DNA of 64,000 nucleotides, from IMG/VR virus record IMGVR_UViG_3300030060_003575, positions 1 through 64,000 of that record; one strand, given 5' to 3'. A model generated the notes under the pieces. The model was not told the origin of the DNA, did no database searches, and saw nothing but the letters and a program-made list of their open reading frames with translations. Shown in pieces: positions 33,560-52,738 of this stretch. How positions within the stretch are numbered: position 1 is the stretch's first letter; each line of letters opens with the position of its first letter. The translations under genes were made by a program, and so were the position numbers. This stretch comes from a virus.

Positions 33560-34082
33560 GTTTAATTCTCCTTTCTTCTAATTCTTTTCTTTTGTTGCTC
33601 ATATGGTTTGCAGGATACCAGTCAGGTTTTCCTAGTCTCCATTCAGCAAAATACCACTTATCACCTAAGTAGTAATCTTGATATGATTTAGTTACACTAT
33701 CATAATCTTTATACTCATCTGGCATAGCCAATGCAAATGGTGTAAGTCCCTTGTCTGTTAAGAAATCAAGTAACTTAGCAATCTCATCAGCATACTTATC
33801 AAGGGTAGTTTCAACCTTGTGAACCTTACCATATCTCTCAGTGTAAGTATGACACAATGCATAAGCATGGTCAACCAACCACTGCATGTTTTGTCTACTT
33901 CTTCTTGCCCACATGGTACAAGGATGATTCAACATTACAGGTCTGTATGGTGATTCAAAACCATAGTAATCCAAACATGTAGAAATCATCTGCAAACTTT
34001 CTGTTGGCATTTTGACTACATGTTTATCACACATTTCATTCGCACTCTCAATTGGGCATTCATTCAATACAAAAATATTCAT
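33537..34082 (-). CDS. pyrimidine-dimer DNA glycosylase-like (DenV/endonuclease V family) protein
   Basis: MNIFVL...CDKHVVKM..ES.QM...HPCTMWAR...RYGKVH. Confidence 0.7.
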   Translation of the reverse strand: MNIFVLNECPIESANEMCDKHVVKMPTESLQMISTCLDYYGFESPYRPVMLNHPCTMWARRSRQNMQWLVDHAYALCHTYTERYGKVHKVETTLDKYADEIAKLLDFLTDKGLTPFALAMPDEYKDYDSVTKSYQDYYLGDKWYFAEWRLGKPDWYPANHMSNKRKELEERRIKHVMDRKV

Positions 34083-34342
34083 TCTTCTTCACTTCCTACG
34101 TATATCCATTTAGCAACCTTATTTGATTTAAGTTGCGTTACTTGAAACTCTTTGTTACCTTTCAGTAAGTTACCTACTTGATGAACATTAGAGTTTGTAA
34201 ACCTATGTGGTTTACCTAAACCATTCTTATACTCATTAAGAAAACGGGTGGCTTCTACTGCGGTGAACATTTCACCTTTCTGTTTTACACCAAATTCTCT
34301 TAATGCCATTAATCTATATTTGTGTCTTAGTGGGCCTGCCAT
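34079..34342 (-). CDS. hypothetical protein
   Basis: Coupled ORF in operon. Confidence 0.55.
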   Translation of the reverse strand: MAGPLRHKYRLMALREFGVKQKGEMFTAVEATRFLNEYKNGLGKPHRFTNSNVHQVGNLLKGNKEFQVTQLKSNKVAKWIYVGSEEE

Positions 34343-35193
34343 TAGAAATAATCCTCCAGTCTACTGTTTGCTATTGTTGGCTTCTTAGCCTTGCCCTTCT
34401 TAACACCTAACTTAACCCTCTCAACAGAAGAGAGTTTAGTATACATATAGTGTTCAAAGTCAGGGTCTTGCTTTAATAAGTTTAACATCTCATATTCATC
34501 AGGTCTCATACCTATCTTCTTACAAATAGATGGTCGCTTATCATACGCTCTCCTTCTAGGCGGAGAAAAAGAAATCGGCATACCATTATGTGCATAAGCA
34601 AGTAATTCAAAGAAGTAATCTGATGACCACTTTCTTTTTACTTTAGCATCTATCCATGCTATCTTTTCTGTGTTTAGAGATGACATTGCCCATGCTAATA
34701 TCTGTTCATCAAAAGGCTTGTTAAACTTTAGCATTTCTGCTACAGCATCTCTATCCTTAGATTTGAGATAAATATTAATCATCTCAAATATATTCTTTTC
34801 AAGAGTTCCTATATATGATTCTGCATTCACACATGCATTCTCTTCTTGTAATTCAAGAAGGGCATAATTAGTTGTGCCTGCTCTCTTTAGTTTACACTTA
34901 TCATATATCTTTTTATCAACATCTTTCTGATTCACAGATGTTAATACAATCTTACCTTTATATTCTAGTAATGTTTTAACTATAAGGTCAACCTTTGGTT
35001 TATAGTGAACCTCTTCAATTAGAATCCCTGTCTCTCTAGGGATACTAAAGTTATCATCAATGTCATATTCGTCTGCATATTTAATAATAGGATTCGGTGG
35101 TAAGAAATTCAAAGCCTTTGTTGTCTTTCCTGTTCCCGGTTTACCTACTACTATCAATGGTCTTTCTGTTGTTTTTATATTAATCATTATCAT
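34342..35193 (-). CDS. RFC large-subunit-like ATPase (shortened)
   Basis: GKPGTGKT Walker A, ILIEEV Walker B; C-terminal NSRLEDYF resembles a PIP box; near rfcS. Confidence 0.6.
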   Translation of the reverse strand: MIMINIKTTERPLIVVGKPGTGKTTKALNFLPPNPIIKYADEYDIDDNFSIPRETGILIEEVHYKPKVDLIVKTLLEYKGKIVLTSVNQKDVDKKIYDKCKLKRAGTTNYALLELQEENACVNAESYIGTLEKNIFEMINIYLKSKDRDAVAEMLKFNKPFDEQILAWAMSSLNTEKIAWIDAKVKRKWSSDYFFELLAYAHNGMPISFSPPRRRAYDKRPSICKKIGMRPDEYEMLNLLKQDPDFEHYMYTKLSSVERVKLGVKKGKAKKPTIANSRLEDYF

Positions 35194-35790: not shown

Positions 35791-36262
35791 CTAATCCATT
35801 CCTCAAATACATTTTATAATCTTTAGCCAATTCTCTATTTCCGGGCCACTTTCCAAACCCTTGATGTTTTTCTAGTTCTAACCAATACCAATGTGCTGCT
35901 GTTATTCTATCATCACCCGCTTCTTCTGCATTTGTTTCTGCTCTATCGGCTAACATCATAACTAAAGATTCTAAGTGTTCTGCTACTATGTATGCCAAGT
36001 CGTGTGATATTGGCATATCAACTTGTTCTTTAATTGTTTTCATATAATGAAATCTTGTCATTCTTTTACGATTAACAGGTGGGGGTTTCGGGGTAATAAG
36101 TTGGTTTTTCTCGTCCACAAAAGGGACTAATTTGGCATCCATTTTCCGATACCTACCCCTACTTTCCTCCCCGACCTTCTTCAAATACGCCACGCCGTCC
36201 TCGATTTTAATACAAGTATACGGCAAATGGTCTAATAGGGTCATTGAGCCTACGGTAATCAC
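35783..36262 (-). CDS. histone-fold protein with N-terminal extension
   Basis: KTIKEQVDMPISHDLAYIVAEHLESLVMMLADRAETNAEEAGDDRITAAHW matches archaeal histone helix/loop spacing. Confidence 0.6.
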   Translation of the reverse strand: MITVGSMTLLDHLPYTCIKIEDGVAYLKKVGEESRGRYRKMDAKLVPFVDEKNQLITPKPPPVNRKRMTRFHYMKTIKEQVDMPISHDLAYIVAEHLESLVMMLADRAETNAEEAGDDRITAAHWYWLELEKHQGFGKWPGNRELAKDYKMYLRNGLDV

Positions 36263-37831
36263 TTAACTCAACTCCTGCACCCTTTGGAGGGTATCAATAT
36301 CTGCGGCGTACTTATCGTGCCGTACTCGCATACTGCGAGGGAACCTCAAACCAATCTGTCCATCCGCATTGCTGGTTATTAAATCGCTAGTTACTTGTAA
36401 TACAATCCTTGGATTAAAGTAATACGTATTGCCTTCATATCTATCTATGTGTTTCCTTAGTTCAGTAGTTAAAAGTGCCAGTTCATCATCTGAGAAACCA
36501 GTACCTACTTTACCTACTTCAACGTAATCAGCATCATTCTTCACAGATATTCCAAAGGTACCAAACCATCCACTACGCTTACCTTTACCATATTCAGCAG
36601 AAGTAATAACTACATCTAATTCAATCCTCGGTGGTTTATACTTCAACCATCCTTTACTTCTTTTACCGGGTTCATAGGCCATGTCTGCATCCTTAATCAT
36701 AACACCTTCATATCCCCAATCTATAGCCAGATTATAAGCAGCAGTAATAGATGTTATATCCATCTTATCAAACCTCTTTGCGATATAAGGTTCCTCAACA
36801 TTTTCTTCAAGTTTTAGAATACGATTAGATAATGGTTCATCTATTAACGCTCTGCCTTGAATAGATAGAATATCAAACACTGCAAGTTGCACAGGGCATT
36901 GTTGCACCGCTTCTGTTTTATTCTTCTTATGAACTCTCTTTGCCAATAACTTGTGGTCGGCAGGAGAACCATCGGTTTTAACCGGATATATTTCAGTATC
37001 AACAATACAAGGAGAGCATAATACTTTCCCATCTAGTATATCATTTACAACATCAGGGAATTGGTCAGTAACAACAACACCCTTTCTATTAAAAATCAAT
37101 ACACTGGGTTCGTACGGCCCCATAGGGCCATAATGAATTTGATAACGATTACCATCATACTTAACATCAACAATATAATTATCAGGTCTTTCCATTCCCT
37201 TCCTAGGTTTTGCTAACATGGGCGTTACAAACTTACCCCATTCTAAATTACACTCTGGCTCAAAACCCGAATGTAATTGTGAACAAATTTCACTAGCAGT
37301 GTTAAACATATAATACTTTTTAATCTCAGTAATAGTATGCCCATAGTGTTTAGCCATTACCTTAAGCGGTACGTTGTTGTTAACACCATTTCTAGGTTTA
37401 CCTAACCAATAGCGTACAAACCACTTCTTTTCCCTAGCACTCATTTTGTTTAGTGCTTCTGCTATCTGTTGATAGGAATTACTAACCATACTACTACAGT
37501 CTAATCTAAGCAAGTTCCAAAACGCACCTAACGTAATATCAGAATCTTCTTCATTACCTAAGTCAATCTCTAATACTGCTTCACCTAAATCACCCCATGT
37601 ATGAACAGCATCTTCTACTTCATCATCAAACAAGCGTAAAGCATTAGCCACCCATGTTATCGCTCTTTTCTCAGCAATGTTGTTAACACCATACTCTAAA
37701 GAGAGAATAGCAATCGCCAAGTGTTTATCATCACCAAAACTATTTAGTGAACCATCTATAGTATTTATCTTACCAGTCGGTGTTTGGTTTTCAATTACCT
37801 CACACATTCTTGCAAACGTTGCTAAACTCAT
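36263..37831 (-). CDS. lig: ATP-dependent DNA ligase
   Basis: KYDGNR, EGVMIK, WLKYK, VGTGFSD, LRFPR motifs. Confidence 0.95.
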   Translation of the reverse strand: MSLATFARMCEVIENQTPTGKINTIDGSLNSFGDDKHLAIAILSLEYGVNNIAEKRAITWVANALRLFDDEVEDAVHTWGDLGEAVLEIDLGNEEDSDITLGAFWNLLRLDCSSMVSNSYQQIAEALNKMSAREKKWFVRYWLGKPRNGVNNNVPLKVMAKHYGHTITEIKKYYMFNTASEICSQLHSGFEPECNLEWGKFVTPMLAKPRKGMERPDNYIVDVKYDGNRYQIHYGPMGPYEPSVLIFNRKGVVVTDQFPDVVNDILDGKVLCSPCIVDTEIYPVKTDGSPADHKLLAKRVHKKNKTEAVQQCPVQLAVFDILSIQGRALIDEPLSNRILKLEENVEEPYIAKRFDKMDITSITAAYNLAIDWGYEGVMIKDADMAYEPGKRSKGWLKYKPPRIELDVVITSAEYGKGKRSGWFGTFGISVKNDADYVEVGKVGTGFSDDELALLTTELRKHIDRYEGNTYYFNPRIVLQVTSDLITSNADGQIGLRFPRSMRVRHDKYAADIDTLQRVQELS

Positions 37832-38073
37832 CTCATCACCTTCATCTTACCATAAGCAACCCAAACATCTTCTGTAGTAATAGCGTCACTACCAGAAGAA
37901 GCAAGTGCCTCATCCACAATAGCAATACAAAGGACTTCAAATTCCTTTTGCATTATCTCTTGAATGGCTTCAGTTGTTCCACTTCTAATATGATTATTCT
38001 GTGGTATCATAGTTCTAAGTTGTTGCTTAATCTTCCTCTCGCTTATTACCATGTTGTTCAACTGCCTTTTCAA
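37828..38073 (-). CDS. histone-fold protein (81 aa)
   Basis: ISERKIKQQLR-loop-long helix-DAITTEDVWVAY pattern. Confidence 0.55.
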   Translation of the reverse strand: MKRQLNNMVISERKIKQQLRTMIPQNNHIRSGTTEAIQEIMQKEFEVLCIAIVDEALASSGSDAITTEDVWVAYGKMKVMR

Positions 38074-38251
38074 TTGCCCTCAATAACTGAGGGGCTTCTT
38101 GCATATTTACTCTTATACCCTTACGGGATACCTTTCCATTTTCATACCATCTAATATCTAGAATGTCTATATTCCAATAGTTACCTGTTCTGATAACTAA
38201 TTCTTGTGTAGCATTTCTAGGTACTCTGGCAATTATTTTTTCATCATTCAT
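38027..38251 (-). CDS. PC4-like ssDNA-binding/coactivator protein
   Basis: LDIRWY...RKGIRV signature. Confidence 0.8.
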   Translation of the reverse strand: MNDEKIIARVPRNATQELVIRTGNYWNIDILDIRWYENGKVSRKGIRVNMQEAPQLLRAIEKAVEQHGNKREED

Positions 38252-38661
38252 GTTGTCATACCTTCTTTAAATTGTTGTAATCCCTTCAAACTATAGAAGT
38301 ATCTTGGTGCAGCAAATTCATCTAACCTATTGGCTATCCAAACTGCGCCACCTAAACTACTTATTTGAACAATCTCAAATTGTCCGTTTTCAGTTTCTAT
38401 AACTTCTATTGTTTCTACTTCGGGTACGAGACCAGTTACTCTTGTAAGTTCAGAAGCCACAGCACTAAGATTCTCAGCAACATATTTTATGATATGTCCT
38501 CTTTGAATAGGAATCTTAGCATCTACTGTAATTCTAATCTTACCATCAAATTCACAGGCTTTACAGCCCCTGCCCCTTTTACCTTCAACATCTGCACATA
38601 CAGGGCAGGCTATCTCAGCAGGCAAGGGGGCAGGGAATCTGATGGTTATTGCTTCTTTCAT
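38248..38661 (-). CDS. Zn-finger protein
   Basis: CPVC...GRGCKAC. Confidence 0.55.
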   Translation of the reverse strand: MKEAITIRFPAPLPAEIACPVCADVEGKRGRGCKACEFDGKIRITVDAKIPIQRGHIIKYVAENLSAVASELTRVTGLVPEVETIEVIETENGQFEIVQISSLGGAVWIANRLDEFAAPRYFYSLKGLQQFKEGMTT

Positions 38662-39116
38662 TCATGTCCCGTCCATTCTCTATATACACAATAGTATTCT
38701 ATTGTAATATCATAGGGAAACGTAGGCGTATAAATATCTACAGTTCCCATATTAGGTGCATACCCATTACTAAATAATACACCATCTTGCGATGCATAAC
38801 CTTCTAGTTTAAAGGTATAGTTAGAAAACACTATCTGGTTATCAACCACCTCAAAACTCAGATGGGATGCATTCAATGTAATAATCTGGATTTGCATCCA
38901 TGTAGAATTATTACCCACAGTAATTATTGGTGCTGTTGAGTTATTATCTCCAGCCATTACAGTATAATTACCACTTAACGTTTCCCATCCACTTACAACT
39001 ATCACAGTTTCACCATCATCCTCAGACGGTGCATCTGGTATAGCATCTGCACAACCCGCTAATAGTATTGAAACCATTAACAATGTCATTATTCTTTTCA
39101 TTACTTCACCTATCAC
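38658..39116 (-). CDS. putative lipoprotein
   Basis: Signal peptide ending in lipobox LLAGC. Confidence 0.7.
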   Translation of the reverse strand: MIGEVMKRIMTLLMVSILLAGCADAIPDAPSEDDGETVIVVSGWETLSGNYTVMAGDNNSTAPIITVGNNSTWMQIQIITLNASHLSFEVVDNQIVFSNYTFKLEGYASQDGVLFSNGYAPNMGTVDIYTPTFPYDITIEYYCVYREWTGHE

Positions 39117-39230
39117 TTAACTCTAGCATTTCATTAACGATTGCTAGATTTGCTCTTATCGCATTCATTGCTGCTACGATTATTGCTTTATCTTTCTTAT
39201 CCAAGTCAACACCTTTCTTTTCGTTACTAA

Positions 39231-39740
39231 TCATTCTTCTTCACCTTTGCATTCACTACAACATGTTTCTTCGTTAGTTGTGTTTCCCCATGTAAATTGG
39301 CTGAACACTTCATAGTGGTCTTTACCGTCTTCACCTACTCTAAAGTATACTGAATACTTCTCGCCGTTCCCCAACACGGTGGCGGAGTTTAAGAACCTTT
39401 CATACATCGAAATTGTTCTTAGGTCTGTACCACTAAAATATGCCTTTCCAAATGGATGTGTGTGAATCCATTCTTTAAGTGGAAAGCGCATACCTTCTGT
39501 TTCATCCTGTCCACCAAAGGTTACAAACCCCGGTGAACCCACACTTATGAACAAGCGGTCATTCCCATCAATGACTACTTGAACTTCTCTTGGCTTATCA
39601 AAAGCCGACATAGACATATCCCATATCCTTTGATGAAAGACATGTTCATTTATGTTAAACCCATCTTGGATAACATCTTTCCAAAAGGGTTGCACAACAA
39701 AAAACTCTTCCCCACGTACATCTGCAAGATAATCTGTCAT
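39231..39740 (-). CDS. JAB/MPN+ (JAMM) metalloprotease
   Basis: Upstream Glu (REVQ) and HTHPFGKAYFSGTD = HxHx7Sx2D. Confidence 0.85.
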   Translation of the reverse strand: MTDYLADVRGEEFFVVQPFWKDVIQDGFNINEHVFHQRIWDMSMSAFDKPREVQVVIDGNDRLFISVGSPGFVTFGGQDETEGMRFPLKEWIHTHPFGKAYFSGTDLRTISMYERFLNSATVLGNGEKYSVYFRVGEDGKDHYEVFSQFTWGNTTNEETCCSECKGEEE

Positions 39741-40390
39741 TGTAGTGCCTCCAATTGCTTTTGGAGTTTCGCAGCCTTTCTCTTCATTCTAAGAGCCTTT
39801 CTTTTACTTCTCCATTCAGTAAACCTAAACCATAGGCTTCTGTTCTTGCAACCTTCACAGCACTCACAGTCTTCTTTAACAGGTTCTCCTGCAAATTCCA
39901 TTGAGCGCATTTGCGGCATTTCCTTACCAGCAATTAGAGTATTGCGGTATTCAGGCCAACGCTTTGTTATCCTGTTAAGCCTAGTTTGGCAACCCTTCAC
40001 ACTTCTGCTTAGGTGTTTTGCTACTGCTTCTCTTTCCTCTGAGTCTGATGACCAGTTTCTAACAAGATACATATCATCCTTTGGACTCCACTTCATTCTG
40101 CTATTAGCATGAAGTTTAGGCTTTACAAGTTCTTTCTTCATCTTCTCTACTTCCTTCTTTAAATCAACCTTAGTTACTCTCTTTCGCACACCCATCTGCT
40201 TTAACTTCGATTTAATCGCGTTAAAGGTTCTATCCTCTTTATCTGGTTGCACTCTATTGTAGTGGTTGTTAAATAGAACAGTTATTAGTTCTACCGTTAC
40301 TGGCCTACCGTCATCCAGTTTTGTTTCCATACACTTTCTCAAGTATTTTTCTTCATCTGCTGTCCATCTCTTTCCCATATTATCACACAT
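39737..40390 (-). CDS. Myb/HTH-repeat DNA-binding protein
   Basis: Two repeats: WTADEEKYL...RTFNAIKSK and WSPKDDMYL...RSVKGCQTR. Confidence 0.65.
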   Translation of the reverse strand: MCDNMGKRWTADEEKYLRKCMETKLDDGRPVTVELITVLFNNHYNRVQPDKEDRTFNAIKSKLKQMGVRKRVTKVDLKKEVEKMKKELVKPKLHANSRMKWSPKDDMYLVRNWSSDSEEREAVAKHLSRSVKGCQTRLNRITKRWPEYRNTLIAGKEMPQMRSMEFAGEPVKEDCECCEGCKNRSLWFRFTEWRSKRKALRMKRKAAKLQKQLEALQ

Positions 40391-41015
40391 TTATTATTAT
40401 TTTATCTGCTACTTTTTCTTCATTAAACCAACGTTGAATCCATTGCGCCCCATATCCAGCAATCGCAACGTGAGTAAAATGTAACACTTCCTTCTTTCCC
40501 GATTCGTTAAAGTTTTCACCTTGACAGGAAAAGGAACCTTCTGGCCCCGTAAGAAATGTTTCACTAAACTTAGGGTCTGTTAAATAACTGATAAGTGCTC
40601 CATTGCGACCCTGCGCCCTCAGGTCTAACCACTTAGTTTTACAATCATCTTGAAACCCTTCTGCATAGAGAAGTTTCCGTACTGCTAGATTATCTGCACA
40701 ACATACAACTAAATCATATCCTTCTATTTGTTTTCTGGTTACGATTGGAAATTGAATCCCAAGTCGGATACCAACATCATTGTAATGATTCATACATGTT
40801 GTTTCTCTTTTCATAGCGGAAACCTTCATCATATCCAGAGACCCTACTGCATAGTTTTGATAACTTAGGTTCTTTTCTTCTACAGTATCTGGGTCTGCTA
40901 TCGTTATTTCATATAGTTCTGTCTTGTGTAAAAGCGGTGCTAGAAAACTTCCAATACCGCCTACACCAATTATTAATATTTTTCTTGTCATTTTAATTAC
41001 CTTATCCCTGCACAA
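40383..41015 (-). CDS. ThiF/MoeB/E1-like ubiquitin-like activating enzyme
   Basis: IIGVGGIGS, DPDTVEEKNL, CADN..VR, downstream FSCQ cysteine. Confidence 0.85.
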   Translation of the reverse strand: MCRDKVIKMTRKILIIGVGGIGSFLAPLLHKTELYEITIADPDTVEEKNLSYQNYAVGSLDMMKVSAMKRETTCMNHYNDVGIRLGIQFPIVTRKQIEGYDLVVCCADNLAVRKLLYAEGFQDDCKTKWLDLRAQGRNGALISYLTDPKFSETFLTGPEGSFSCQGENFNESGKKEVLHFTHVAIAGYGAQWIQRWFNEEKVADKIIINV

Positions 41016-41929
41016 AATCCTTCTACATCCAACGTTGATAGTTTATCCTTATCTATATTGAACATAGGATATAGTTTCTTAGTTGTCAATCTTTGTGCTA
41101 CTGCTGTGCATTTGCAAGCATCACAAATTGCCTGTTGAGTATGTTCAACCTTACCAATCTTTCTAAGCATAGAGGCTATCCAAACAGCAGAAGCCATATG
41201 ACTCCTTGTAAAATGAATATCTCTCAACGTTAGATAATCATGGATATAATTTACAACCGTCTTTGTTTCCGATGTAAACTCAATCGAGGCATCTAAGTCA
41301 GAACATATTCTATCAACCCAAGGATTAATAGGCATGTTTTGCAGTATGTTAGACTTGCCTAAATGTCTAGCAAAATGTCTAGCATACTTAGATACCTTAT
41401 GTGCATCTTCATTGTTTTGTTCTGCTATTTCAGATATTGTTATAGGAACCCCATTTTCTCTCAAACAAATAACAACAATCGCACATGCTCGTAATGGCAA
41501 TGTCACTCCCCTTAACTTATGGTCTAGATACAAAGAACGATAGTAACTGTGTACTCTGTCCTTTAACCCATGATTTGGTAGGAATGGTGACATAACCATA
41601 TTACATTCTAACAATCCCTTTTGAATAGAGGTTTCATGTGAACTACTTCTAAATCTCTTATTAGTCCTTCTAAGTTGTCTACTCAAACGACTGTTATCAT
41701 CATTACCAATTAGTGACCCTAATTCTCCGGGTCTATCTATTTCATTCTTATAGGTAAAATTACCTGCTTTCAATTGTTCATAGTCAATGGTTCGGTTTGT
41801 CTTATCCTCAAAGATATTACGAACCTGCACATAACCACAATCATCACAGACTGTTTCACCCATTCTATCATCATAACTAAAATTATTTCCATCACATTCT
41901 TCACATTTCATGAAATCACCGTGTCCCAA
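40997..41929 (-). CDS. tfb: transcription initiation factor TFIIB/TFB homologue
   Basis: Zn ribbon CEEC...GETVCDDCG followed by two cyclin-like repeats. Confidence 0.85.
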   Translation of the reverse strand: MGHGDFMKCEECDGNNFSYDDRMGETVCDDCGYVQVRNIFEDKTNRTIDYEQLKAGNFTYKNEIDRPGELGSLIGNDDNSRLSRQLRRTNKRFRSSSHETSIQKGLLECNMVMSPFLPNHGLKDRVHSYYRSLYLDHKLRGVTLPLRACAIVVICLRENGVPITISEIAEQNNEDAHKVSKYARHFARHLGKSNILQNMPINPWVDRICSDLDASIEFTSETKTVVNYIHDYLTLRDIHFTRSHMASAVWIASMLRKIGKVEHTQQAICDACKCTAVAQRLTTKKLYPMFNIDKDKLSTLDVEGFCAGIR

Positions 41930-43257
41930 TTATAATCTATATCCCCCATGAATTCCCAATCTAGACTAAATCTAGATTCTACTTTTCCTTCCATCACTCT
42001 ACGAGGAATATATCTACCTATTGTATTAACTAACTTTACAGTTACATTGTCATTCAATAGTGCTAATGCCCTAGCAGCATATTGGTCACCTAAACTAGAG
42101 TTAGCATGTATATTGTCAATACATATAGGCCCATTGAATCTACCTAGTAACTTAGTATCAAAGTCTGATGGATTAGTTATTGGCTGTGCCTCATCAGAAA
42201 TAAATACATATGTCTTTACTTTCTGAGTATCAGTCTTGTAAGCAGAATTAATGATAACCCAATCACATAGTTTACCTCTAACTAACATTACTTTATATCT
42301 GCTCCTGTGGTTAGTGTAATCTAGAATCTTAATCCTATCTGGGTATTTAACTTCAAGGCTGTTCATCAATTCCTTTGCCCTGTTCTCAATCATATCAGAT
42401 GTTCTGTTTTGAACAAGGAATTCTTCCATAAGTTCCAATGCTGCTTCGCTAGGTTCTTCACCCATAAGTTTAGTCCATAACTTCTTAGGTGTAGTATTAG
42501 CCCATGTCTTTGCTCTAGAATGTTCATGATAAAAATAGTTAACCATAATATCTAAATCAGCAACGTTGATTGGTGCCCAAATACCATCTGATATTTCAAT
42601 AGCGGCTTCTGTATTACTAATCAACACAGTGTTTAACCTACAACTAACCTTCTCTCTTTCCTTTACGTTAAAGTACCAGAATGGTGTTCTGTTTTCCAAT
42701 ACATAGGTAACATTCTCTGGCATTGTTATCATTCTAATTACATATTCGAGTAAAGGTTGCGCCTCTTTCTCAAAGCAAGAACGGTAAATATATCTAGATA
42801 AAGCAAAAAGCAAATTCTTCTTTCTAACTCTTTGATTCATCATCTTGTAATATGTCTGTCCCTTTTCAACCATTACGGCCATACTGCTTTCGGGCAATAC
42901 AAAAGCCATTTTAAATTGCTTAGGAACATGATTACGGTAACTGTTTCTTGAACCCCAACCTAACACAGTCTGAAGAACATTCTTTAGTTCAACCATCAAA
43001 GGTTCTCCTTTATCATATGCTCTTTGCTGCAACTTACAATTTACAATTGTCCTTTCTATCTCTCTATTATTCTCAACAATAGCAAGATAACTCTTACCAC
43101 TATATCTACGCATCTTTAGCCTTTCAATAGGGTAAGTAGAGTATATATCCACCTTTGTCTGGTGAAAACTACTATCATCATTTGCTGAGTATATTCTAAA
43201 TACACACTCATGCTTATTTCCATAATGGTCAAACATTTTAATTCCTCGGTTTCTCAT
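41908..43257 (-). CDS. hypothetical protein with candidate C-terminal E2 (UBC)-like domain
   Basis: Four predicted strands then NGPICIDNI...ALALLND, resembling the E2 NGxICLDIL...SLLxD active-site segment; no HPN motif. Confidence 0.4.
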   Translation of the reverse strand: MRNRGIKMFDHYGNKHECVFRIYSANDDSSFHQTKVDIYSTYPIERLKMRRYSGKSYLAIVENNREIERTIVNCKLQQRAYDKGEPLMVELKNVLQTVLGWGSRNSYRNHVPKQFKMAFVLPESSMAVMVEKGQTYYKMMNQRVRKKNLLFALSRYIYRSCFEKEAQPLLEYVIRMITMPENVTYVLENRTPFWYFNVKEREKVSCRLNTVLISNTEAAIEISDGIWAPINVADLDIMVNYFYHEHSRAKTWANTTPKKLWTKLMGEEPSEAALELMEEFLVQNRTSDMIENRAKELMNSLEVKYPDRIKILDYTNHRSRYKVMLVRGKLCDWVIINSAYKTDTQKVKTYVFISDEAQPITNPSDFDTKLLGRFNGPICIDNIHANSSLGDQYAARALALLNDNVTVKLVNTIGRYIPRRVMEGKVESRFSLDWEFMGDIDYNWDTVIS

Positions 43258-43633
43258 TTACTAGAAGAAAGTCCGGTGGCTTTTGAATAAACTTACCATT
43301 TACATGGAATGTTCTCCATCCTAACTTTCTTCTCTCTTCCCACTTATCTTGCTTTCTAGTAAACCAACCACTCTTCTTCAATTCCTGTAGATAGGGTAGT
43401 TTGCATCCTTTCAAGAAAGCATATACTATTATAACATCTTTCGGTAACTTCTTAAACTGAGTCCAAGAATAGGTAATACCTTCAATGGTTGGTCTTTCTA
43501 ACCCATTACCTTTACTCTTACCGAAGCCGTCACTTCTCTTACGCTTAATCTTATTATCTCTAAGATACTTTTGAAGTCCTGCTATAATTTCACTCTTGGT
43601 GTAATCACCATACAATTCTACTATTTCACTCAT
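43238..43633 (-). CDS. hypothetical basic protein
   Basis: Coupled ORF in operon. Confidence 0.55.
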   Translation of the reverse strand: MSEIVELYGDYTKSEIIAGLQKYLRDNKIKRKRSDGFGKSKGNGLERPTIEGITYSWTQFKKLPKDVIIVYAFLKGCKLPYLQELKKSGWFTRKQDKWEERRKLGWRTFHVNGKFIQKPPDFLLVNEKPRN

Positions 43634-44069
43634 TTATATCAACCTCAACATATTCTACGTCCTTTACATAGTAACCTGTGTGTAGTCTAACATTAAACTT
43701 ACCCAACGGTACAATGCTTATAAATTCCAACTCAAGTCTCTTTCTTCTCTCGTTGAATTTATACTTCCAGATGATGTGCTTATCTCGCCATCTTGTGCAT
43801 TGAAACTTCTTTCGCTTTGCTACCTTTTCGATAGCGGTTGCTATTTTCAATACATCTTCGACTTCTGCATCTGGCACTCTTTCTTCAAGCCTCTCAATAA
43901 AGTGTGGAGTGAAGATTGCCCAAAAGAAATGGAACCCGTCTTCTTTTATCACCTTTTCGTGAATAGCAGAAAACGGATTGAAGTATTTGCCACATGCTGT
44001 GCATACCATCTTTCCATTACCTTTCATCTCAAATTTATCATTTCCACATCTACAGTCATTAAATCTCAT
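43626..44069 (-). CDS. Zn-ribbon-containing hypothetical protein
   Basis: CRCG...CTACG N-terminus. Confidence 0.55.
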   Translation of the reverse strand: MRFNDCRCGNDKFEMKGNGKMVCTACGKYFNPFSAIHEKVIKEDGFHFFWAIFTPHFIERLEERVPDAEVEDVLKIATAIEKVAKRKKFQCTRWRDKHIIWKYKFNERRKRLELEFISIVPLGKFNVRLHTGYYVKDVEYVEVDINE

Positions 44070-44448
44070 TTTTATTCGCCTCTATATAGTTTGCTAATTG
44101 TTTCATTTCCATTATTTTAGTGTTGAATTCACTGTCGTCTTTTGCTTTACCAGAACATATGTAAATACGCTTGGCAAATCTTAACCAATCTCTCACAGAA
44201 TACTTACCAGTAATAGTATCCTGCGTTGCCCTGTCAAATGATGCATGTAAAGTTTCCGCATTGTGATACGGATACCTTGCACTCTTTGACAAGATTGTAG
44301 GCAATATATGTTCAATCTCATGCATTTCGTCACGCATATATGATGCGATTAATGCAACGTGTTCTGGTGTTCTTATAATCTGGTGACTATATTTCACACG
44401 CACCGCCACCACACGCTGGTTCATCACCAAAATTAGTATCATCATCAT
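44059..44448 (-). CDS. hypothetical protein
   Basis: ORF in operon; true start probably downstream of the nrdJ stop. Confidence 0.45.
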   Translation of the reverse strand: MMMILILVMNQRVVAVRVKYSHQIIRTPEHVALIASYMRDEMHEIEHILPTILSKSARYPYHNAETLHASFDRATQDTITGKYSVRDWLRFAKRIYICSGKAKDDSEFNTKIMEMKQLANYIEANKNEI

Positions 44449-46270
44449 ATTCTATTATTTGCGTTAGGTCTAATGCCTTTAGAGATTTCATCATTTCTTC
44501 ATAAGTACCTTTAGTACAAGCCTCAAATGGTGCTTGCACATATACTGAATCATCATTAGGGAAACAGGATAATCCATTGTAGAAGTGTCTGTTTAGCCAC
44601 ATCCACTCTCCAACTTCATTCCAATCATTCTTATTGATGTAAACAGTTGCTGATACATTGTGGGTATTCTGTCCATTACTATGTCCAGGGTTTACCCATC
44701 TAACCGTTGTGTTCTTTACTCTTTCTAAGAACATAAACGTGTCTTCTTGCTTCTTCAATAATGCACCTACTGGTGCTTTCTGTGGTATCTCAATAATCAT
44801 TCCATCAGGATTGAATTGGTCTTCAACAATCAATTCTGGATGGTTTTCTACCAGATAACCACAGATTGCCTCAGTCTTTCCAACTCTTATTCTTCTGATG
44901 TAATAATCGTTATGCCATGCATGTATACCAGAAGATGAACCACAAACCATAGATGCAGTACCACTTGGCTTAACACAAGTAATCCTAGCAGCAGCGTTTA
45001 TTCCTAGAACATCTGCCCATTTCTTGTTAACTTCCTTAGCCATGTATGCAGTACCAGTAATGTCTAGATTAGTTACCTTATTGGATGCTAGTCCTGTCAT
45101 TGATACACCTAGTAATGCATCCTTCTCAGTCGTTGTCTTCCATATATCTCTTAGATAGTGGAAGTCAGTATAAGATGCTTGAAGAGTACCTAGTATAGTA
45201 GCGGCCTCAACTCTAGCATTCAAATCTTCTTGGTCAACAACACTTGAAGAATTTATTTCTGTCAAATTACAGAATTGATAGGGTCTAAGAGCAATCTCGC
45301 AGCAAGGATTCGTTCCCCAATCTTTATCATTTGTTAGATAAATACCCGGTTCTCCAGAACCACCTGCTTCAATTCTATCCCATATCTTATCAAAGAAGTC
45401 TTTCTTTATCCTGTGTCTTAGTAATACTACAGAATTGTTAGCACGTTGTCTCTGAGGATTCTTCTCCCAAAACTGTCCTGCTTTACAATTCATCATGTGT
45501 GCATCATCAGCACTAAACAAAGCAATCAAAGCGGCCCTTCTATTACCACCTGCTGTTACTGCATCTGCAAGATGGCACATAATATCATGGCACTCTAAAG
45601 TAGATAGTTGTTCACCATCTTCCTTTGTTTGTAGTATATTCTCTACTTTAACCATACATTCTCTCAATGGTTCAGGGCCGGGTGCTCTACCGCCTCTTGT
45701 CTTTAACCTTGCACCTTTCGGTCTAATATCATCATAGATAAATCTAGGTCGCTGAGTCAATTCACCAGTATAAGAACGGAATAGTTCTTTAACTGCATCT
45801 GCCCAACCAATAATAGAATCCTGAATAACAATCTTTCTTGTTCTATCTTTGTTTGGTTGTTTAATCTCAGGCAGTTGTCTAACGTGATGTTGTTGAACAG
45901 AATATCCTAATCCTGTCCCATTCATCAACAAAAACATTGCTTCATGGAAACACTCAACCGAATCCACAGGCATGTATGAACAGTTGTAAATACTGTTAGG
46001 TGATACTTCAATAGCCTTACCTGCATATTGCATAGACCTCATAGATGGAAGTATCTTAAATGGTAATACATAGTGCTCATAAATATCTACAACCTTAGTG
46101 TAGTATTCAGACATCTCCCCATATCCCATCTCTTTTAACTTATTCAAATGCATATCTCTGTTTCTATATACAATCTCTTCCCATGTTTCTTTCCTTAACG
46201 CTTCTGGTAGCCACTTGGCATACTTCATGTATATCGTTATGTCACTCATTATTTTACTTGCTAATTCCAT
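44387..46270 (-). CDS. nrdJ: class II (adenosylcobalamin-dependent) ribonucleotide reductase
   Basis: YNCS, TNPCCEI, VKPSGT and C-terminal CGGGAC; no small-subunit gene nearby. Confidence 0.9.
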   Translation of the reverse strand: MELASKIMSDITIYMKYAKWLPEALRKETWEEIVYRNRDMHLNKLKEMGYGEMSEYYTKVVDIYEHYVLPFKILPSMRSMQYAGKAIEVSPNSIYNCSYMPVDSVECFHEAMFLLMNGTGLGYSVQQHHVRQLPEIKQPNKDRTRKIVIQDSIIGWADAVKELFRSYTGELTQRPRFIYDDIRPKGARLKTRGGRAPGPEPLRECMVKVENILQTKEDGEQLSTLECHDIMCHLADAVTAGGNRRAALIALFSADDAHMMNCKAGQFWEKNPQRQRANNSVVLLRHRIKKDFFDKIWDRIEAGGSGEPGIYLTNDKDWGTNPCCEIALRPYQFCNLTEINSSSVVDQEDLNARVEAATILGTLQASYTDFHYLRDIWKTTTEKDALLGVSMTGLASNKVTNLDITGTAYMAKEVNKKWADVLGINAAARITCVKPSGTASMVCGSSSGIHAWHNDYYIRRIRVGKTEAICGYLVENHPELIVEDQFNPDGMIIEIPQKAPVGALLKKQEDTFMFLERVKNTTVRWVNPGHSNGQNTHNVSATVYINKNDWNEVGEWMWLNRHFYNGLSCFPNDDSVYVQAPFEACTKGTYEEMMKSLKALDLTQIIEYDDDTNFGDEPACGGGACEI

Positions 46271-46271
46271 T

Positions 46272-46655
46272 TTAACACCTTACTGTTTTCCTATATGGCA
46301 TTTCTGCTAGATTGGTAAATGCCGTAACCCATTCGCCGGACTTTTTAATTGCCCATTGCTTTTCTATTTTAATTTCCCATTCAGGGAAAGTCTCTATTGC
46401 CTTAATTCCATATCTTTCAATCATTTGATTAAAGTCTGTGAAAGTGTGGCCATCATATATAACTTGCATTTCCCCATCACAAACAATTAATGCTTTTGTG
46501 CTATATGCAAATACATGACCTAATGGATAAAAGTCTGCTCTAACTACAGCCAATCCATCGTGAGTCATAAAATCTTCTTTTATGTTCCAACCAAATATTC
46601 TCATTAAATCTGGTAGAACATTTTCATCTACAAAATTAATATTATCCTTTAACAT
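46272..46655 (-). CDS. hypothetical protein
   Basis: 127-aa ORF in operon. Confidence 0.55.
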   Translation of the reverse strand: MLKDNINFVDENVLPDLMRIFGWNIKEDFMTHDGLAVVRADFYPLGHVFAYSTKALIVCDGEMQVIYDGHTFTDFNQMIERYGIKAIETFPEWEIKIEKQWAIKKSGEWVTAFTNLAEMPYRKTVRC

Positions 46656-46673
46656 TCATTTGCCCCCTTTTTG

Positions 46674-46712
46674 TGAGGGTGGGACGTTGAAGGCTATACG
46701 CCCCAACCCTCA
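46674..46712 (-). terminator. GC-rich hairpin downstream of the Ubl gene
   Basis: Minus strand GAGGGTTGGGGCGT...ACGTCCCACCCTC. Confidence 0.4.
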
Positions 46713-46723
46713 ATACCAGTGTT

Positions 46724-46930
46724 TTACTGGATACCGCCAACAATGGCTGGTATTAAATCTACAGACTCAACGGAGTCCCAACTTACTGATGAAATCATTT
46801 CTCTGGAGGTTAAGTCGCCATCAATAACTACCCAATGTGAAGGGTGGTCGTTTATTTGGTCTATAACCTTCTCAGCCGTCTGATTTACCAGTTCTGTATG
46901 TCCTGTCTCATTAATTATCGTCAATAACAT
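46724..46930 (-). CDS. ubiquitin-like (ThiS/MoaD/SAMP-type beta-grasp) protein with GG-IQ C-terminus
   Basis: About 68 aa after a GAGG RBS; VVIDG...VDLIPAIVGG-IQ-stop. Confidence 0.75.
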   Translation of the reverse strand: MLLTIINETGHTELVNQTAEKVIDQINDHPSHWVVIDGDLTSREMISSVSWDSVESVDLIPAIVGGIQ

Positions 46931-46970
46931 ATTCATTCCTCGGTAATTTTTTGTAAAGCAAGCCGCCTTA

Positions 46971-47174
46971 TCAATCTTGCGCTTGCCTTCCTTCCAATAG
47001 CCTAGCAGTAAGCAGGTTAATGGTTTCTTCATATTTGTTTACTAAAACAGCCAAATTCCTATTAGCCGTTACTAGGGATTGATACCCTACACTTAACTGG
47101 TTAAGTTGCTCAGTCGCCTTTTCCAACTCTTCTTCCAGTTCCTTCTTGGTCTTAGTCTTTTCACTCATGTCCAA
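46971..47174 (-). CDS. small coiled-coil protein
   Basis: Heptad-rich 67-aa ORF. Confidence 0.55.
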   Translation of the reverse strand: MDMSEKTKTKKELEEELEKATEQLNQLSVGYQSLVTANRNLAVLVNKYEETINLLTARLLEGRQAQD

Positions 47175-48322
47175 TCATTCCTTGTATTATCGCGCTTTAG
47201 TTTTTTTATCCAAGAACTCGCGTCATGCTTGGAGATTTCATCAAGGTCGCCTTCATACCCTAACTTAATCAAATAGTCCTTTTGTTTCTGTGTGGCTAAT
47301 TCAACGTTCCCATCACCGTTTACTATATCCCACAGTTTATTCACTTGATTTTCACTCAAAACAGTACCATTTAACATTTTCTTCTTAATATCTTTAAGGA
47401 AACTTTCTTCCCAATTGTCCTTACCCTGTTCAGGAACAAACGGTTTTATTCCATAATACTCACAGGCTTCGGCAAATTCTTCCGAATGTGTGATGTTCTC
47501 AAGGTTTGCCACAACTTTTTGCTTCCTTTCAAAGTCTCTCGTCTTGGCTCTCTTTTGATTTCTATCAAATTCTTCCAGAGTCTCGCGTCTTTTAGCCAAC
47601 ATTTTGTCCTCTTTTTCCACTTCTGCCTCTGCCTGTTCCACGTTAAAGAAGAACATCAACAAATCGCTGTAAAGTTTCTGATTAGGAAAACCGTAGGTAT
47701 TTATCTGCGCTTTTGGATTATCTGGATGATTCCATCTCCAAACTATAGAAGCCATTCTATAGCCGGGTTGTCCATACTTTCCACTTGAAGACTTACGGAT
47801 ATAGGTTTTATCTCGATACATTTTGTGGTATGCATCATAATATCTACCTTTCTTTCTAACGTTCACTCTTAGGTCAAGGTCTTTGACCCTATCAAACATA
47901 TTAGTAAACTGCTCCCCATGTAGTCTCCACCAAGCATTTCTCTTTAACGCTTGAACTCTAACAGTAATCCATTCCTCTATCATTTCATCAGTAATCTGGT
48001 CATCTGCTAAACCAGTTTCTTCTTTGATAGCCCTAAAGATTAGGTAAGAGTTAATGTGGTCTGAACCTACACATTCACGCACACCAGTCTCAGTATTGTG
48101 AATCTCAAAGTGATATACTATATCATGTCCACATAAACACTTACGAATATGTTTCTTTGCCCATTCGGGTGGGTCACCCAATTCACTCCACCAAACTTCA
48201 CCAGTGGCTATCCACTCATGTTTGGCATCATCGTAATTATCAGCCTTGGATAGAATAACCATATTTTCTATTAGTTTTCTATCCCAACGACCATTACCTA
48301 ATTGTCTATTAGGCTTAACCAT
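47165..48322 (-). CDS. hypothetical protein with Cys/His metal-binding motif
   Basis: CLCGH.I...HN..TG...VGSDHI. Confidence 0.6.
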   Translation of the reverse strand: MVKPNRQLGNGRWDRKLIENMVILSKADNYDDAKHEWIATGEVWWSELGDPPEWAKKHIRKCLCGHDIVYHFEIHNTETGVRECVGSDHINSYLIFRAIKEETGLADDQITDEMIEEWITVRVQALKRNAWWRLHGEQFTNMFDRVKDLDLRVNVRKKGRYYDAYHKMYRDKTYIRKSSSGKYGQPGYRMASIVWRWNHPDNPKAQINTYGFPNQKLYSDLLMFFFNVEQAEAEVEKEDKMLAKRRETLEEFDRNQKRAKTRDFERKQKVVANLENITHSEEFAEACEYYGIKPFVPEQGKDNWEESFLKDIKKKMLNGTVLSENQVNKLWDIVNGDGNVELATQKQKDYLIKLGYEGDLDEISKHDASSWIKKLKRDNTRNDWT

Positions 48323-48771
48323 TAGGCATTACTCCCTGCTGGCCCCTTATCATACTTATCATATGGGGTATTAGTCTGATGTTTAAATCTATTCAATTTA
48401 GACTGCGTTGCTTGCCTTCTTCTTGCTATTGCATTGTTCTTCGTTAATTCATCAACAGCAATACGTGAAAACTGGGGCTGATTACCTCCTGCACCAGTCA
48501 ATAAATAATCCCACACTTTAATAGTGCTGTCTTTATTTTTAAGTGTATACATGAAATATCTGCCTTCCTTTTTTGCCTTCTCTCTTACTTCTGTTGTCCA
48601 CTCTAATCCTCTTTCAAATATAGTGAGGTCTTCTCTATAATCATTCGGCATTGGAGGAACACCGTCTATTTGCATAACATTCTTTCTGTCTACAACAACA
48701 TAGACTTTACCAGAGTATTGTCCTTTTATTCCTCTGACAATTTCGCCATCTGTTAATACTTTATATGCCAT
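48322..48771 (-). CDS. hypothetical protein
   Basis: Coupled ORF. Confidence 0.55.
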   Translation of the reverse strand: MAYKVLTDGEIVRGIKGQYSGKVYVVVDRKNVMQIDGVPPMPNDYREDLTIFERGLEWTTEVREKAKKEGRYFMYTLKNKDSTIKVWDYLLTGAGGNQPQFSRIAVDELTKNNAIARRRQATQSKLNRFKHQTNTPYDKYDKGPAGSNA

Positions 48772-49186
48772 TATTCTTCCTCTTCGTTTGTATTATAGTA
48801 CAAAAGATGGTAAATTGCATCATTCAAATAAGTTTCATCGTTCACATTATAATTGATGAGCAATTCTATTATTTGTTCCATGCCTTCATCTGTTTGTGCT
48901 TTCTTCATCGTTGCTCTAATCAATTCTAGATTCATTTAGATACCTCTCATATACATTCTTATCCCAATACCAAATTGCTGCGATTGCTACTGTTGCATAC
49001 AAAGCAAACAGTTCTGCAAAATCCCTAAAGGTATATTCTATTTTCTCAATCCACGGATGGTAGTTATAATTCACTTTGAAAACCTCCGTAGTTTGGCTAC
49101 TCTCCTACAATGAGCGCAGGGTGATTGCTTATGAATTGCTCCCTTCGGGATGCCGAATCCGCAAACCTCACAATTATGTTTAGCCA

Positions 49187-49378: not shown

Positions 49379-49671
49379 ATTTATTCCTCAAAAATTTCTT
49401 TGCATCTTCCAAACTATCAATTATTTGAACTTGATGCATAATGCCCAAATGGACTTTCTTCCTCTTTTTGTCTTCTATATATTGGTCAGCCATCCATTGC
49501 CTGAGTCTTAACGCTTCTAACTTATCTAATACTATTAAATAATCCATTATTCTTCCTCCATACTAGGTATAGTCACTAAGACTACTTTACAATCATCACA
49601 CAAATCATCCATTCTTGTCATCCATTCGTTACAAGTTGGACACTTTACTGATACTCTTCCCGACATACTTT

Positions 49672-49920
49672 TCACTCCATTTTCTGGAATGCTCTTTGGT
49701 CTGCTAGATGACTTGTTAATAGTTCATCTATCTTACCAAACAATGCTTCTGCACATCCTCCAATAGTCTTTCTATGTAAACATAGCCAAATCGCATAATC
49801 ACGATTGATAACTACCTTTGGTTGGTCTTGCTCATCCATAGTTATTACTATGGGTGGCATATCCACATCTTCAATTAAACGAAACTCAATCTCCCTTTTA
49901 TCTTGTTCCTCTAATCTCAT
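49672..49920 (-). CDS. hypothetical protein
   Basis: Coupled ORF. Confidence 0.55.
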   Translation of the reverse strand: MRLEEQDKREIEFRLIEDVDMPPIVITMDEQDQPKVVINRDYAIWLCLHRKTIGGCAEALFGKIDELLTSHLADQRAFQKME

Positions 49921-52166: not shown

Positions 52167-52676
52167 TTATTCCTCTTCCTCCACAAAGTCGTATTCTGCA
52201 CAAGCGGCAAGTCCATCTAGTGAACCATCCCATGAGCCGTCCTTGTAAAGTTCCCTTGCCGTCTGCTTTGCTTTCTTAGCGAGGGTGTTTGCGTAATCAT
52301 TAGCATCTGTGAACACAGGTGGCCCTGCGCTCTTTCCGTGCTTTCTGAGCAATGGCTGAGAATACTGCGCTGTGCTCTCAAAGAACGTATATGCAGCCTC
52401 TCGGATTGCTTCAGCAGCAGAATCAACCACTACTGATGCAGCAGCAGGTAGTAATCCTTGATTACCTCTGCGCCATACAACCTTTCCTGAAGGGAAGTCC
52501 TTCAGCATTGCTTTAATGGATAGAGCCAAAGCAGCCCTATTATCCACATTGTTGTCACCAGTCTCTATTAGCATAGTTGCTAGAGACCTTACATCATCGG
52601 GGATTGTTCCATCAACGTCACCCTCGATGCATGAGTTTACCTTCATCTTTACCGATTCCCAATTTACTTCATCCAT
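52167..52676 (-). CDS. cassette A protein, paralogue of 54406-54939
   Basis: 169 aa from MDEVNW; shares HGKSxG, YA...KK and WDGS with the cassette B protein. Confidence 0.75.
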   Translation of the reverse strand: MDEVNWESVKMKVNSCIEGDVDGTIPDDVRSLATMLIETGDNNVDNRAALALSIKAMLKDFPSGKVVWRRGNQGLLPAAASVVVDSAAEAIREAAYTFFESTAQYSQPLLRKHGKSAGPPVFTDANDYANTLAKKAKQTARELYKDGSWDGSLDGLAACAEYDFVEEEE

Positions 52677-52738
52677 AATATTCACTTTCCTATTTTTTCT
52701 TTCTTTGCCCGTTAGCGGCATAGTTGTCAATTCTCTGG

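Follow-up and report, generated by a model that had tools for sequence, protein, structure and literature searches.

E1–E2 tagging of the ubiquitin type was long held to be eukaryotic, until examples were demonstrated in a few archaea and in anti-phage systems of bacteria. We analyzed a 64,000-nucleotide stretch of viral DNA (the window; positions 1 to 64,000 of IMG/VR record IMGVR_UViG_3300030060_003575), which is part of a single marine viral contig of 75,141 bp. This virus probably encodes a self-contained, minimal ubiquitin-like protein-conjugation cascade, whose chemical steps and targets we infer from sequence. The set consists of a precursor of a ubiquitin-like protein (Ubl), a minimal E1, a JAMM protease (JAB), and a candidate E2 formed by the C-terminal domain of a 449-amino acid protein (p449). 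An earlier reading of the window from its letters alone (the sequence-only reading) had proposed that an archaeal virus carries its own protein-tagging pathway here. That proposal is now supported by comparisons and models of the proteins, namely the fold and Gly-Gly of the Ubl, the co-inheritance of the genes, the Ubl fusions and poly-Ubl genes of the host lineage, and the E2-like partner. The evidence supports assignment of the viral set to the prokaryotic Ubl–E1–E2–JAMM type, as a virus-borne, minimal, and host-derived form that is conserved across an abundant ocean virus lineage.

Related systems

BilABCD (class 6d of Iyer et al. 2006, Iyer-Burroughs-Aravind) has the same four parts as the viral set, a Ubl, an E2-like protein, a JAB/JAMM deubiquitinase, and an E1, and likewise no E3 (PMC1779556, PMC10557695). 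As predicted for the viral protein, the C-terminal Gly of the Bil Ubl is followed by a few nonconserved residues, and their removal by the JAMM protease is required before E1 can act. Some Bil Ubls have two or three β-grasp domains, which is a further likeness. However, BilABCD is a bacterial anti-phage defense operon, whereas the set described here belongs to an archaeal virus. The large Bil E1, BilD, pairs an inactive with an active adenylation domain and also has a mobile Cys domain and Zn sites; the viral E1, at 202–210 amino acids, lacks all of these features. Unlike in Bil, the E2-like domain of the virus forms the tail of a 449-amino acid protein, and the viral genes are spread over 7.7 kb with TFB, ribonucleotide reductase (RNR), and other genes between them rather than forming a compact four-gene operon. 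Among PADLOC models, the viral E1 matched only the E1 halves of 'E1-E2' models and the JAB weakly matched a generic JAB model, with no match to an E2 or Ubl.

The ubiquitin operons of Caldiarchaeum subterraneum and the Asgard archaea are also archaeal, and in these a short extension after the Gly-Gly is cut by a JAMM protease, followed by the action of E1 and E2 (PMC5654768, PMC3082918); the JAMM protease deconjugates as well. Trimming of a capped Ubl by JAMM ahead of E1 activation has been demonstrated for Caldiarchaeum pro-ubiquitin (PMC5654768) and for BilA/BilC (PMC10557695). The Caldiarchaeum and Asgard proteins are cellular and eukaryote-like by sequence, and include a RING E3 and an Rpn11-like JAMM. 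In contrast, the viral Ubl, E2-like protein, and JAMM fall below Pfam thresholds, and no RING protein was found with them.

The SAMP/UbaA/HvJAMM1 and Urm1 systems resemble the viral set in having a small ThiS/MoaD-like β-grasp protein ending in Gly-Gly, a MoeB-type E1 with a crossover-loop Cys (putative in the viral E1), and removal of the tag by JAMM, as predicted for the virus (PMC2948915, PMC4443979, PMC4895103). In Haloferax, SAMP tagging feeds the proteasomal turnover of the transcription factor TBP2 (PMC2948915, PMC4443979, PMC4895103). Unlike the viral set, SAMP systems operate without an E2 and serve in sulfur transfer as well, and UbaA is ~270 amino acids in length with Zn-binding cysteines.

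Archaeal viruses with a gene of the E1 superfamily have been described. Nidhogg viruses of Helarchaeota carry an E1-like (ThiF) gene (bioRxiv 10.1101/2021.07.29.454249), and 'MoeB' is prevalent among predicted archaeal viruses (RaFAH, PMC8276007). As here, these genes were read as using or hijacking ubiquitin-like tagging. Those reports concern E1 only and assume that the host supplies the Ubl and E2, whereas the present virus has its own Ubl, protease, and E2-like protein. Borgs, which are archaeal extrachromosomal virus-like elements, carry JAMM proteins predicted to act on a modifier ending in Gly-Gly, and one Borg has a SAMP (PMC12660748). Borgs multiply the protease; the accessible text of that report places an E1 in the Methanoperedens host genome and describes no Borg E1 or E2-like protein (PMC12660748). 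Our literature search returned viral E1 genes only, and no report of a virus in which a Ubl precursor is accompanied by an E1, a protease, and an E2-like protein of viral origin; the search also returned nothing linking magroviruses with ubiquitin or crAss-like phages with ThiF.

The ubiquitin-like protein

The sequence-only reading had placed a JAMM protease, a ThiF/E1 enzyme, and a 68-amino acid protein in one orientation, and all three genes were recovered at those positions, on the minus strand (Table 1). A GAGGA located six bases upstream, together with the homologues, backs the start of the 68-amino acid protein at 46930, and its predicted end, VGG-IQ, was confirmed. We aligned 55 distinct homologues taken from contigs of related viruses; N7, G10, T12, H29, H32, W33, R43, and V64-G65-G66 are invariant. 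The Gly-Gly is followed by no residue in 5 of the 55, by seven residues in one, and by one or two variable residues in nearly all the rest (IQ, TQ, SQ, Y, C, F, N, L, SL, RF, QE, NQ, AY, and others). A [LIVM]-[VIQ]-G-G end is near-universal among 128 representatives of the wider Ubl family.

The AlphaFold2 model calculated from the Ubl alignment (pLDDT 81) runs strand-strand-helix-strand-strand-(short helix)-strand and is disordered from residue 62 to the C-terminus. This is the arrangement of a β-grasp fold (ββαββ-β around one helix), and the top 50 Foldseek matches to the model were all ubiquitin, NEDD8, or ISG15 (probability 0.7–0.99, E ~1e-2). The sequence-only reading had staked its identification of a Ubl on this fold and on conservation of the Gly-Gly in homologues, and both were borne out, the fold as a prediction. 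The single sequence had no match in Pfam, NCBIfam, PHROGs, or PADLOC and did not reach the ThiS (PF02597), MoaD, or SAMP cut-offs; the profile gave chance matches only against PDB sequences. Because the modeled fold matches ubiquitin-like proteins and no sequence library recognizes the protein, we regard the Ubl, on the strength of the model, as a β-grasp protein with a masked Gly-Gly that belongs to a family not filed in these libraries.

The Ubl also has an invariant His-rich patch, formed by N-E-T-G-H-T (residues 7–12, with H11 nearly invariant) and D-H-P-T/S-H-W (residues 29–33). No patch of this kind is known to us from ThiS, MoaD, or ubiquitin. Possible roles are metal binding and docking of the enzymes.

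A GC-rich hairpin lies directly 3' of the Ubl stop codon and has a folding energy of -24 kcal/mol in this region. For the 90 nucleotides after the stop codon in 83 distinct relatives, the median energy is -26 kcal/mol and the median z is -3.2 relative to shuffles. The position of the hairpin is kept while the stem sequences differ among relatives, and a T-run often follows. The hairpin is possibly a terminator, an attenuator, or a stabilizer of the mRNA 3' end, and could allow the tag to be made in excess over its enzymes.

A search of 185,579 species genomes with the Ubl profile gave one match, on a 7.5-kb contig in an Altibacter metagenome-assembled genome (a Flavobacteriaceae bin). This contig is probably a mis-binned magrovirus fragment.

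The E1

The E1 matches Pfam ThiF with E 1e-17 (64.5 bits, cut-off 28.1). Its start is probably the ATG at 40991, since homologues begin MTRKILIIG. The family profile matches the ThiF-type protein 9egc, UBA5, Cap2, and MoeB at E ~1e-10. Invariant in the family are the GxGGIG motif (G17, G19, G20, G22), D41, D43, N49, Q53, K64, D108, N109, R113, and C164, with C164 in the context S-F-S-C-Q-G. The protein consists of an adenylation domain only and is without Zn-binding CxxC pairs. NCBIfam scores for the E1 were 54.6 bits for ThiF (cut-off 159), 43.9 for MoeB (266), 32.8 for PRTRC ThiF (145), 28.7 for UbaA (450), and 28.4 for Cap2 (320). As these are far below every equivalog cut-off, the viral E1 constitutes a separate branch of the superfamily.

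Cys164 is located 56 residues after D108-N109 and aligns with the Cys of a host fusion E1 described below. The spacing of the crossover-loop Cys is 57 in E. coli MoeB (D130 to C187) and ThiF (D127 to C184), and by spacing C164 may be the equivalent of MoeB C187 and ThiF C184.

The JAMM protease

As a single sequence, the JAB has a weak Pfam match (E 0.006; 16.8 bits, cut-off 25). It contains the motif H-T-H-P-F-G-K-A-Y-F-S-G-T-D, and E52, H93, H95, S103, and D106 are invariant in 58 homologues, making up a complete E...HxHx7SxxD zinc site. The family profile matches AMSH-LP (E 2.9e-5), AMSH, Sst2, and a Caldiarchaeum Rpn11-like protein (E 3e-5 to 3e-3). The family is large and diverse, with 630 clusters at 90% identity and 26% mean column identity; all clusters are on contigs of ≤104 kb, and none has a recorded Pfam assignment. 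At least 332 IMG/VR stretches encode the protease. From its sequence, the JAMM protease is predicted to process pro-Ubl and to deconjugate. An acidic EEE tail, nearly invariant across the JAB family, is a separate feature that recurs in other proteins of the window (see below).

The candidate E2

The sequence-only reading had named a candidate E2 without coordinates. Such a protein is found inside the interval, and its C-terminal domain is likely to be E2-like, as judged from the model; sequence methods give no support for this. The AlphaFold2 model of p449 has a pLDDT of 86. Its N-terminal 285 amino acids match no known fold, and the whole model had no match in Foldseek. For residues 286–433, however, at least 34 of the 50 best structural matches have folds of the UBC superfamily (UBC/UEV/RWD), and the modeled domain has the helix, four-strand meander, and subsequent helices of the UBC fold.

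Cys379, invariant in 49 sequences and the sole invariant Cys of the p449 family, occurs in G-P-I-C-I-D-N-I, which resembles the canonical E2 motif G-x-I-C-L-D-I-L. It directly follows the strand formed by residues 372–378 and is 10 residues ahead of a long helix (389–401), which is the position of the E2 active site. The HPN motif is absent from p449, and the columns upstream of G-P-I-C are unconserved; bacterial class 6c and 6d E2-like proteins are also without HPN (PMC1779556). None of 42 members matched Pfam UQ_con, RWD, or UEV or a PADLOC E2 through the C-terminal domain, the domain profile had no match among PDB sequences, and the ESM Atlas gave no usable match for p449 or for the host fusion protein P0176.

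Other proteins of the locus were considered as E2 and rejected. The 217-amino acid protein has Myb-like repeats (pattern W-x3-E-E/D-x-Y-L) with a weak PHROG 'transcriptional regulator' match, and occurs only in the closest relatives (~15 of ~100 loci). Most relatives lack the 131-, 147-, 129-, and 127-amino acid proteins that are encoded between the genes for p449 and the Ubl. A 137-amino acid Zn-ribbon protein (38248–38661) is conserved, but its only conserved cysteines are those of two CxxC pairs.

Co-inheritance and expression

Co-occurrence was counted over distinct related viral contigs or loci extending far enough to cover the partner gene. Starting from the E1, the JAB was found in 76 of 76 and the Ubl in 45 of 45; starting from the JAB, the E1 was found in 60 of 60 and the Ubl in 43 of 43. 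The co-occurrence that the sequence-only reading had proposed to survey in related viruses is thus complete, with JAB and E1 accompanying the Ubl in all spanning contigs. A profile of the E2-like C-terminal domain matched upstream of the E1 in 83 of 83 distinct loci.

Marine metatranscriptome contigs, drawn from two studies in all, cover the whole E1 gene (40184–41020, 98.6% identical), the junction of the TFB and E2-like genes (41451–42260), and the whole Ubl gene with its downstream hairpin (46661–47008).

Relatives in the host lineage

The viral Ubl profile had 128 matches among 1.84 billion representative proteins. These include tandem Ubl precursors of two or three units, in which each unit ends in ...VGG and is joined to the next by a short linker. 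Fusions to an E1 are also among them, in the order Ubl-Ubl-E1 in P0131 and Ubl-E1 in P0161. The viral E1 aligns with the E1 half of P0131 at 31% identity (E 3e-17), and the cysteine of S-C-Q is shared. Such fusions place the Ubl and E1 families in a single pathway, and the head-to-tail arrays call for an endoprotease that cuts after the Gly-Gly.

Many cluster members carry the NCBI name Candidatus Poseidoniales or Poseidoniaceae archaeon. The Poseidoniales Ubl family is found on contigs of up to 0.8–2 Mb and is therefore chromosomal. In three long metagenome contigs of Poseidoniales type (L203, L206, and L221), a tri-Ubl gene at 10001–10636 lies between genes for a class I glutamine amidotransferase and an RFC small subunit; the host tri-Ubl clusters have 320–353 members. 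Neither a JAB nor an E1 of the viral type was found within 10 kb of the host tri-Ubl gene, and scans of IMG/VR with P0131 and P0121 gave no match. The viral Ubls form their own clade and are 27–46% identical to the host units. Judged by these alignments, the virus carries a diverged copy of the Ubl and E1 system of its presumed host. We found no publication on the Poseidoniales three-unit Ubl gene, the literature on Poseidoniales and ubiquitin appearing unrelated by title and abstract.

In P0130, P0176, P0150, and P0163, one or two Ubl units are fused to a domain of ~250–310 amino acids with an invariant Cys in a C-I-Q/S context. BLASTP gave no match between p449 and this domain. By hhalign, the comparison had a Prob of 0.9%, and with a deeper alignment a Prob of 9% (E 0.0036), covering 93 columns in the same order and including the Cys motif. 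The host domain may be E2-like, and its homology to the viral E2-like domain is an unproven lead from these alignments.

Proposed pathway and alternatives

In the proposed pathway, the Ubl would be made as a 68-amino acid precursor with a two-residue IQ cap after its Gly-Gly, which the JAMM protease would trim; the protease would probably also strip the tag from conjugates later. The mini E1, probably a homodimer of MoeB/Uba5 type, would adenylate the freed Gly-Gly with ATP and probably take the Ubl as a thioester on the crossover-loop Cys164. From there the Ubl would be handed to Cys379 of the E2-like domain of p449, the large N-terminal part of which may select the substrate in place of an E3, and would end up on lysines of host or viral proteins. 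Since the kit appears to be a diverged copy of the host Ubl system, its likely purpose would be the re-marking or removal of host proteins, or else interference with the homologous tagging of the host. The genes of the set sit in the replication and transcription module, beside the viral TFB. It is possible, if somewhat short of probable, that the kit was captured from the host poly-Ubl system and, together with the viral TFB, marks host proteins, for instance transcription or replication factors, for removal or overrides a Ubl-based antiviral response.

The same proteins have also been considered as a sulfur-carrier system of the ThiS/MoaD/TtuB type, in which the E1 adenylates the Ubl and a host sulfurtransferase makes a thiocarboxylate for tRNA wobble uridines or a cofactor. 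Such a carrier could help an AT-rich virus decode A-ending codons, with the JAMM protease only trimming the precursor or releasing an adduct. JAMM-processed sulfur carriers are known, as QbsD trims QbsE and Mec+ releases the CysO adduct. Several of our results fit this reading or weigh against conjugation. In structural comparison the Ubl has its best single match in MoaD, and ThiS, CysO, and TtuB are also among the matches listed; ThiF and MoeB are the nearest named families of the E1 by NCBIfam score, and the E1 resembles both in having only an adenylation domain. It is without the separate Cys domain and UFD by which canonical E1s load E2, and the Ubl has no conserved lysine that would suggest chain formation. 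Co-occurrence alone is weak evidence for a joint function because the whole 12-kb block, including the ligase, TFB, and other genes, is conserved in the lineage. The metatranscriptome contigs show neither strand nor level, and DNA carry-over is possible. Archaeal SAMPs and Urm1, moreover, serve both roles (PMC2948915, PMC5349211).

Conjugation is nevertheless favored over sulfur carriage, and is quite probable in our view, because of the fusions, the precursors with several Ubl units, the E2-like protein beside the E1, and the lack of sulfur-transfer domains in the open reading frames scanned. The observation in the sequence-only reading that thiamine, molybdopterin, and tRNA-thiolation genes are missing held for the ~45 open reading frames scanned with Pfam, and these were likewise free of rhodanese, desulfurase, PP-loop thiolase, ThiG, and MoaE domains. 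A cysteine protein of predicted E2-type fold always accompanies the E1, and both the tandem arrangement of Ubl units in one gene and the fusion of Ubl to E1 typify modifier systems rather than sulfur carriers. The NCBIfam scores that point to ThiF and MoeB are all far below cut-offs, and the top 50 Foldseek matches of the Ubl are without exception conjugated modifiers. A sulfur carrier is on this evidence unlikely.

A role mainly in counter-defense, for which we see a rather small chance, would have an antiviral host Ubl system as its object: the viral JAMM protease would strip the host Ubl from viral proteins, and the viral Ubl, E1, and E2-like protein would be decoys or competitors rather than a productive tagging set. 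A homologous Ubl/E1 family does exist in the host lineage, Bil systems tag phage proteins (PMC10557695), and the viral JAMM family is large and fast-evolving. The multiplied JAMM 'deSAMPylases' of Borg elements are proposed to answer a SAMP-based defense (PMC12660748). For such a role, however, the JAMM protease alone would suffice, yet the Ubl, E1, and E2-like protein keep their catalytic residues in every genome examined. The host tri-Ubl gene is in a stable housekeeping neighborhood (between the amidotransferase and RFC genes) and not in a defense island, and the low identity of viral and host Ubls makes cross-reaction uncertain. It is very unlikely that tagging is E2-independent in the style of SAMP or Urm1, with the E1 alone conjugating like Haloferax UbaA and p449 being a substrate, an adaptor, or unrelated. 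The invariant Cys379 occupies the place of the E2 active site and its local motif is E2-like, and the p449 gene is linked to the E1 in every one of the loci counted. The host family, too, includes fusions of Ubl with a domain that has a similar Cys motif, the homology of which is unproven at the hhalign values given above.

If the conjugation cascade is active, viruses of prokaryotes would take over host protein fate as eukaryotic viruses do, and no productive ubiquitin-type conjugation pathway encoded by a virus of prokaryotes would precede this one. The cascade would provide a compact model (a 68-amino acid tag, a 200-amino acid E1, and a 170-amino acid protease) in which E1, E2, and deubiquitinase functions are carried out without canonical accessory domains. 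The Poseidoniales would add a second lineage, outside the Asgard group, to the archaea with poly-Ubl genes. The host poly-Ubl genes and Ubl-E1 fusions show polyprotein Ubl precursors beyond eukaryotes, which bears on the organization of ubiquitin genes.

The virus and its gene order

The virus is a group B magrovirus, as judged by its replication module (split PolB, RNR, RFC, and ligase). Its family-B DNA polymerase is divided between open reading frames at 27376–29028 (550 amino acids) and 25667–26599 (310 amino acids), both on the minus strand with ~780 nucleotides between them; a split PolB is a trait of group B magroviruses (Philosof et al. 2017, PMC5434244). These are ~100-kb marine tailed viruses with RNR, RFC, a clamp, and an archaeal-type ligase (PMC5434244). 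In the surface ocean, magroviruses rank among the most abundant viruses. The replication module of the present virus also holds a PD-(D/E)XK nuclease, an ERCC4 nuclease, RFC, and a clamp-like protein, and its IMG/VR relatives are marine contigs of 70–103 kb.

The viral TFB, of 310 amino acids, matches the NCBIfam transcription initiation factor IIB across both cyclin folds (E 2e-18) and the Pfam TFIIB Zn-ribbon (E 1e-5), and its gene is kept in most related loci. A viral TFB suggests an archaeal host, presumed to be Marine Group II archaea (Poseidoniales). The archaeal virus of the sequence-only reading is upheld by this gene together with the split PolB, RFC, and archaeal-type ligase.

The minus strand carries every gene between ~20 and 52 kb of the window. 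From the gene for the 127-amino acid protein through the JAB, adjacent genes abut or overlap (Table 1).

Table 1. Features of the Ubl locus and its surroundings, with window coordinates.
Feature	Position	Strand	Remarks
385-amino acid protein, then 67-amino acid protein		minus	First in transcription order (high to low coordinates), ahead of the Ubl
Pro-Ubl, predicted β-grasp modifier of 68 amino acids	46724–46930	minus	Ends A-I-V-G-G followed by I-Q tail
GC-rich hairpin	46677–46713	minus	Directly 3' of the Ubl stop codon
127-amino acid protein		minus	Between Ubl and RNR
Class II RNR	44387–46270	minus	Pfam scan
Three small proteins		minus	Between RNR and p449
p449, candidate E2	41908–43257	minus	449 amino acids; UBC-like C-terminal domain by model, residues ~286–433
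Viral TFB (TFIIB) homologue	40997–41929	minus	Between the E2-like and E1 genes
Minimal E1, ThiF-type	40383–41015	minus	Start probably 40991
217-amino acid protein	39737–40390	minus	Two Myb/SANT-like repeats
JAMM/MPN+ metalloprotease (JAB)	39231–39740	minus	169 amino acids
Small proteins		minus	Between JAB and ligase
ATP-dependent DNA ligase	36263–37831	minus	Three-domain, archaeal-type
Proteins ending EEE or EEEE	26916–27137, 34079–34360, 39231–39740, 48771–48935, 49547–49675, 52167–52772	minus	

No near-identical DNA to positions 36000–47200 was found among GenBank phages. An origin from crAss-like phages was considered because the sole GenBank phage matches to the E1, all distant, are crAss001 gp76 and its kin; it was rejected because the virus has a TFB, RFC, and an archaeal-type ligase and is syntenic with magroviruses. 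In Bacteroides phage crAss001 (gp75–gp77) and other crAss-like phages, gp76 (383 amino acids, annotated ThiF) adjoins a 'metalloprotease', gp77, and this order may be a comparable pairing of E1 and protease.

Two giant open reading frames on the plus strand, at 3405–10667 (2,420 amino acids) and 11041–19425 (2,794 amino acids), had no Pfam match. A 74-amino acid protein (38027–38251, minus strand), conserved beside the ligase, has the motif I-R-W-Y-E-N-G-K..R-K-G-I-R-V, which may reflect a PC4/YdbC-type single-stranded-DNA-binding fold.

At least six unrelated proteins of the early and replication block, the JAB among them, end in EEE or EEEE (Table 1), where ~0.1 would be expected by chance (a rough estimate). 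The metagenomic Ubl-family fusion proteins P0154 and P0163 also end in EEE or EEEE. Such an end may be a shared recognition tag.

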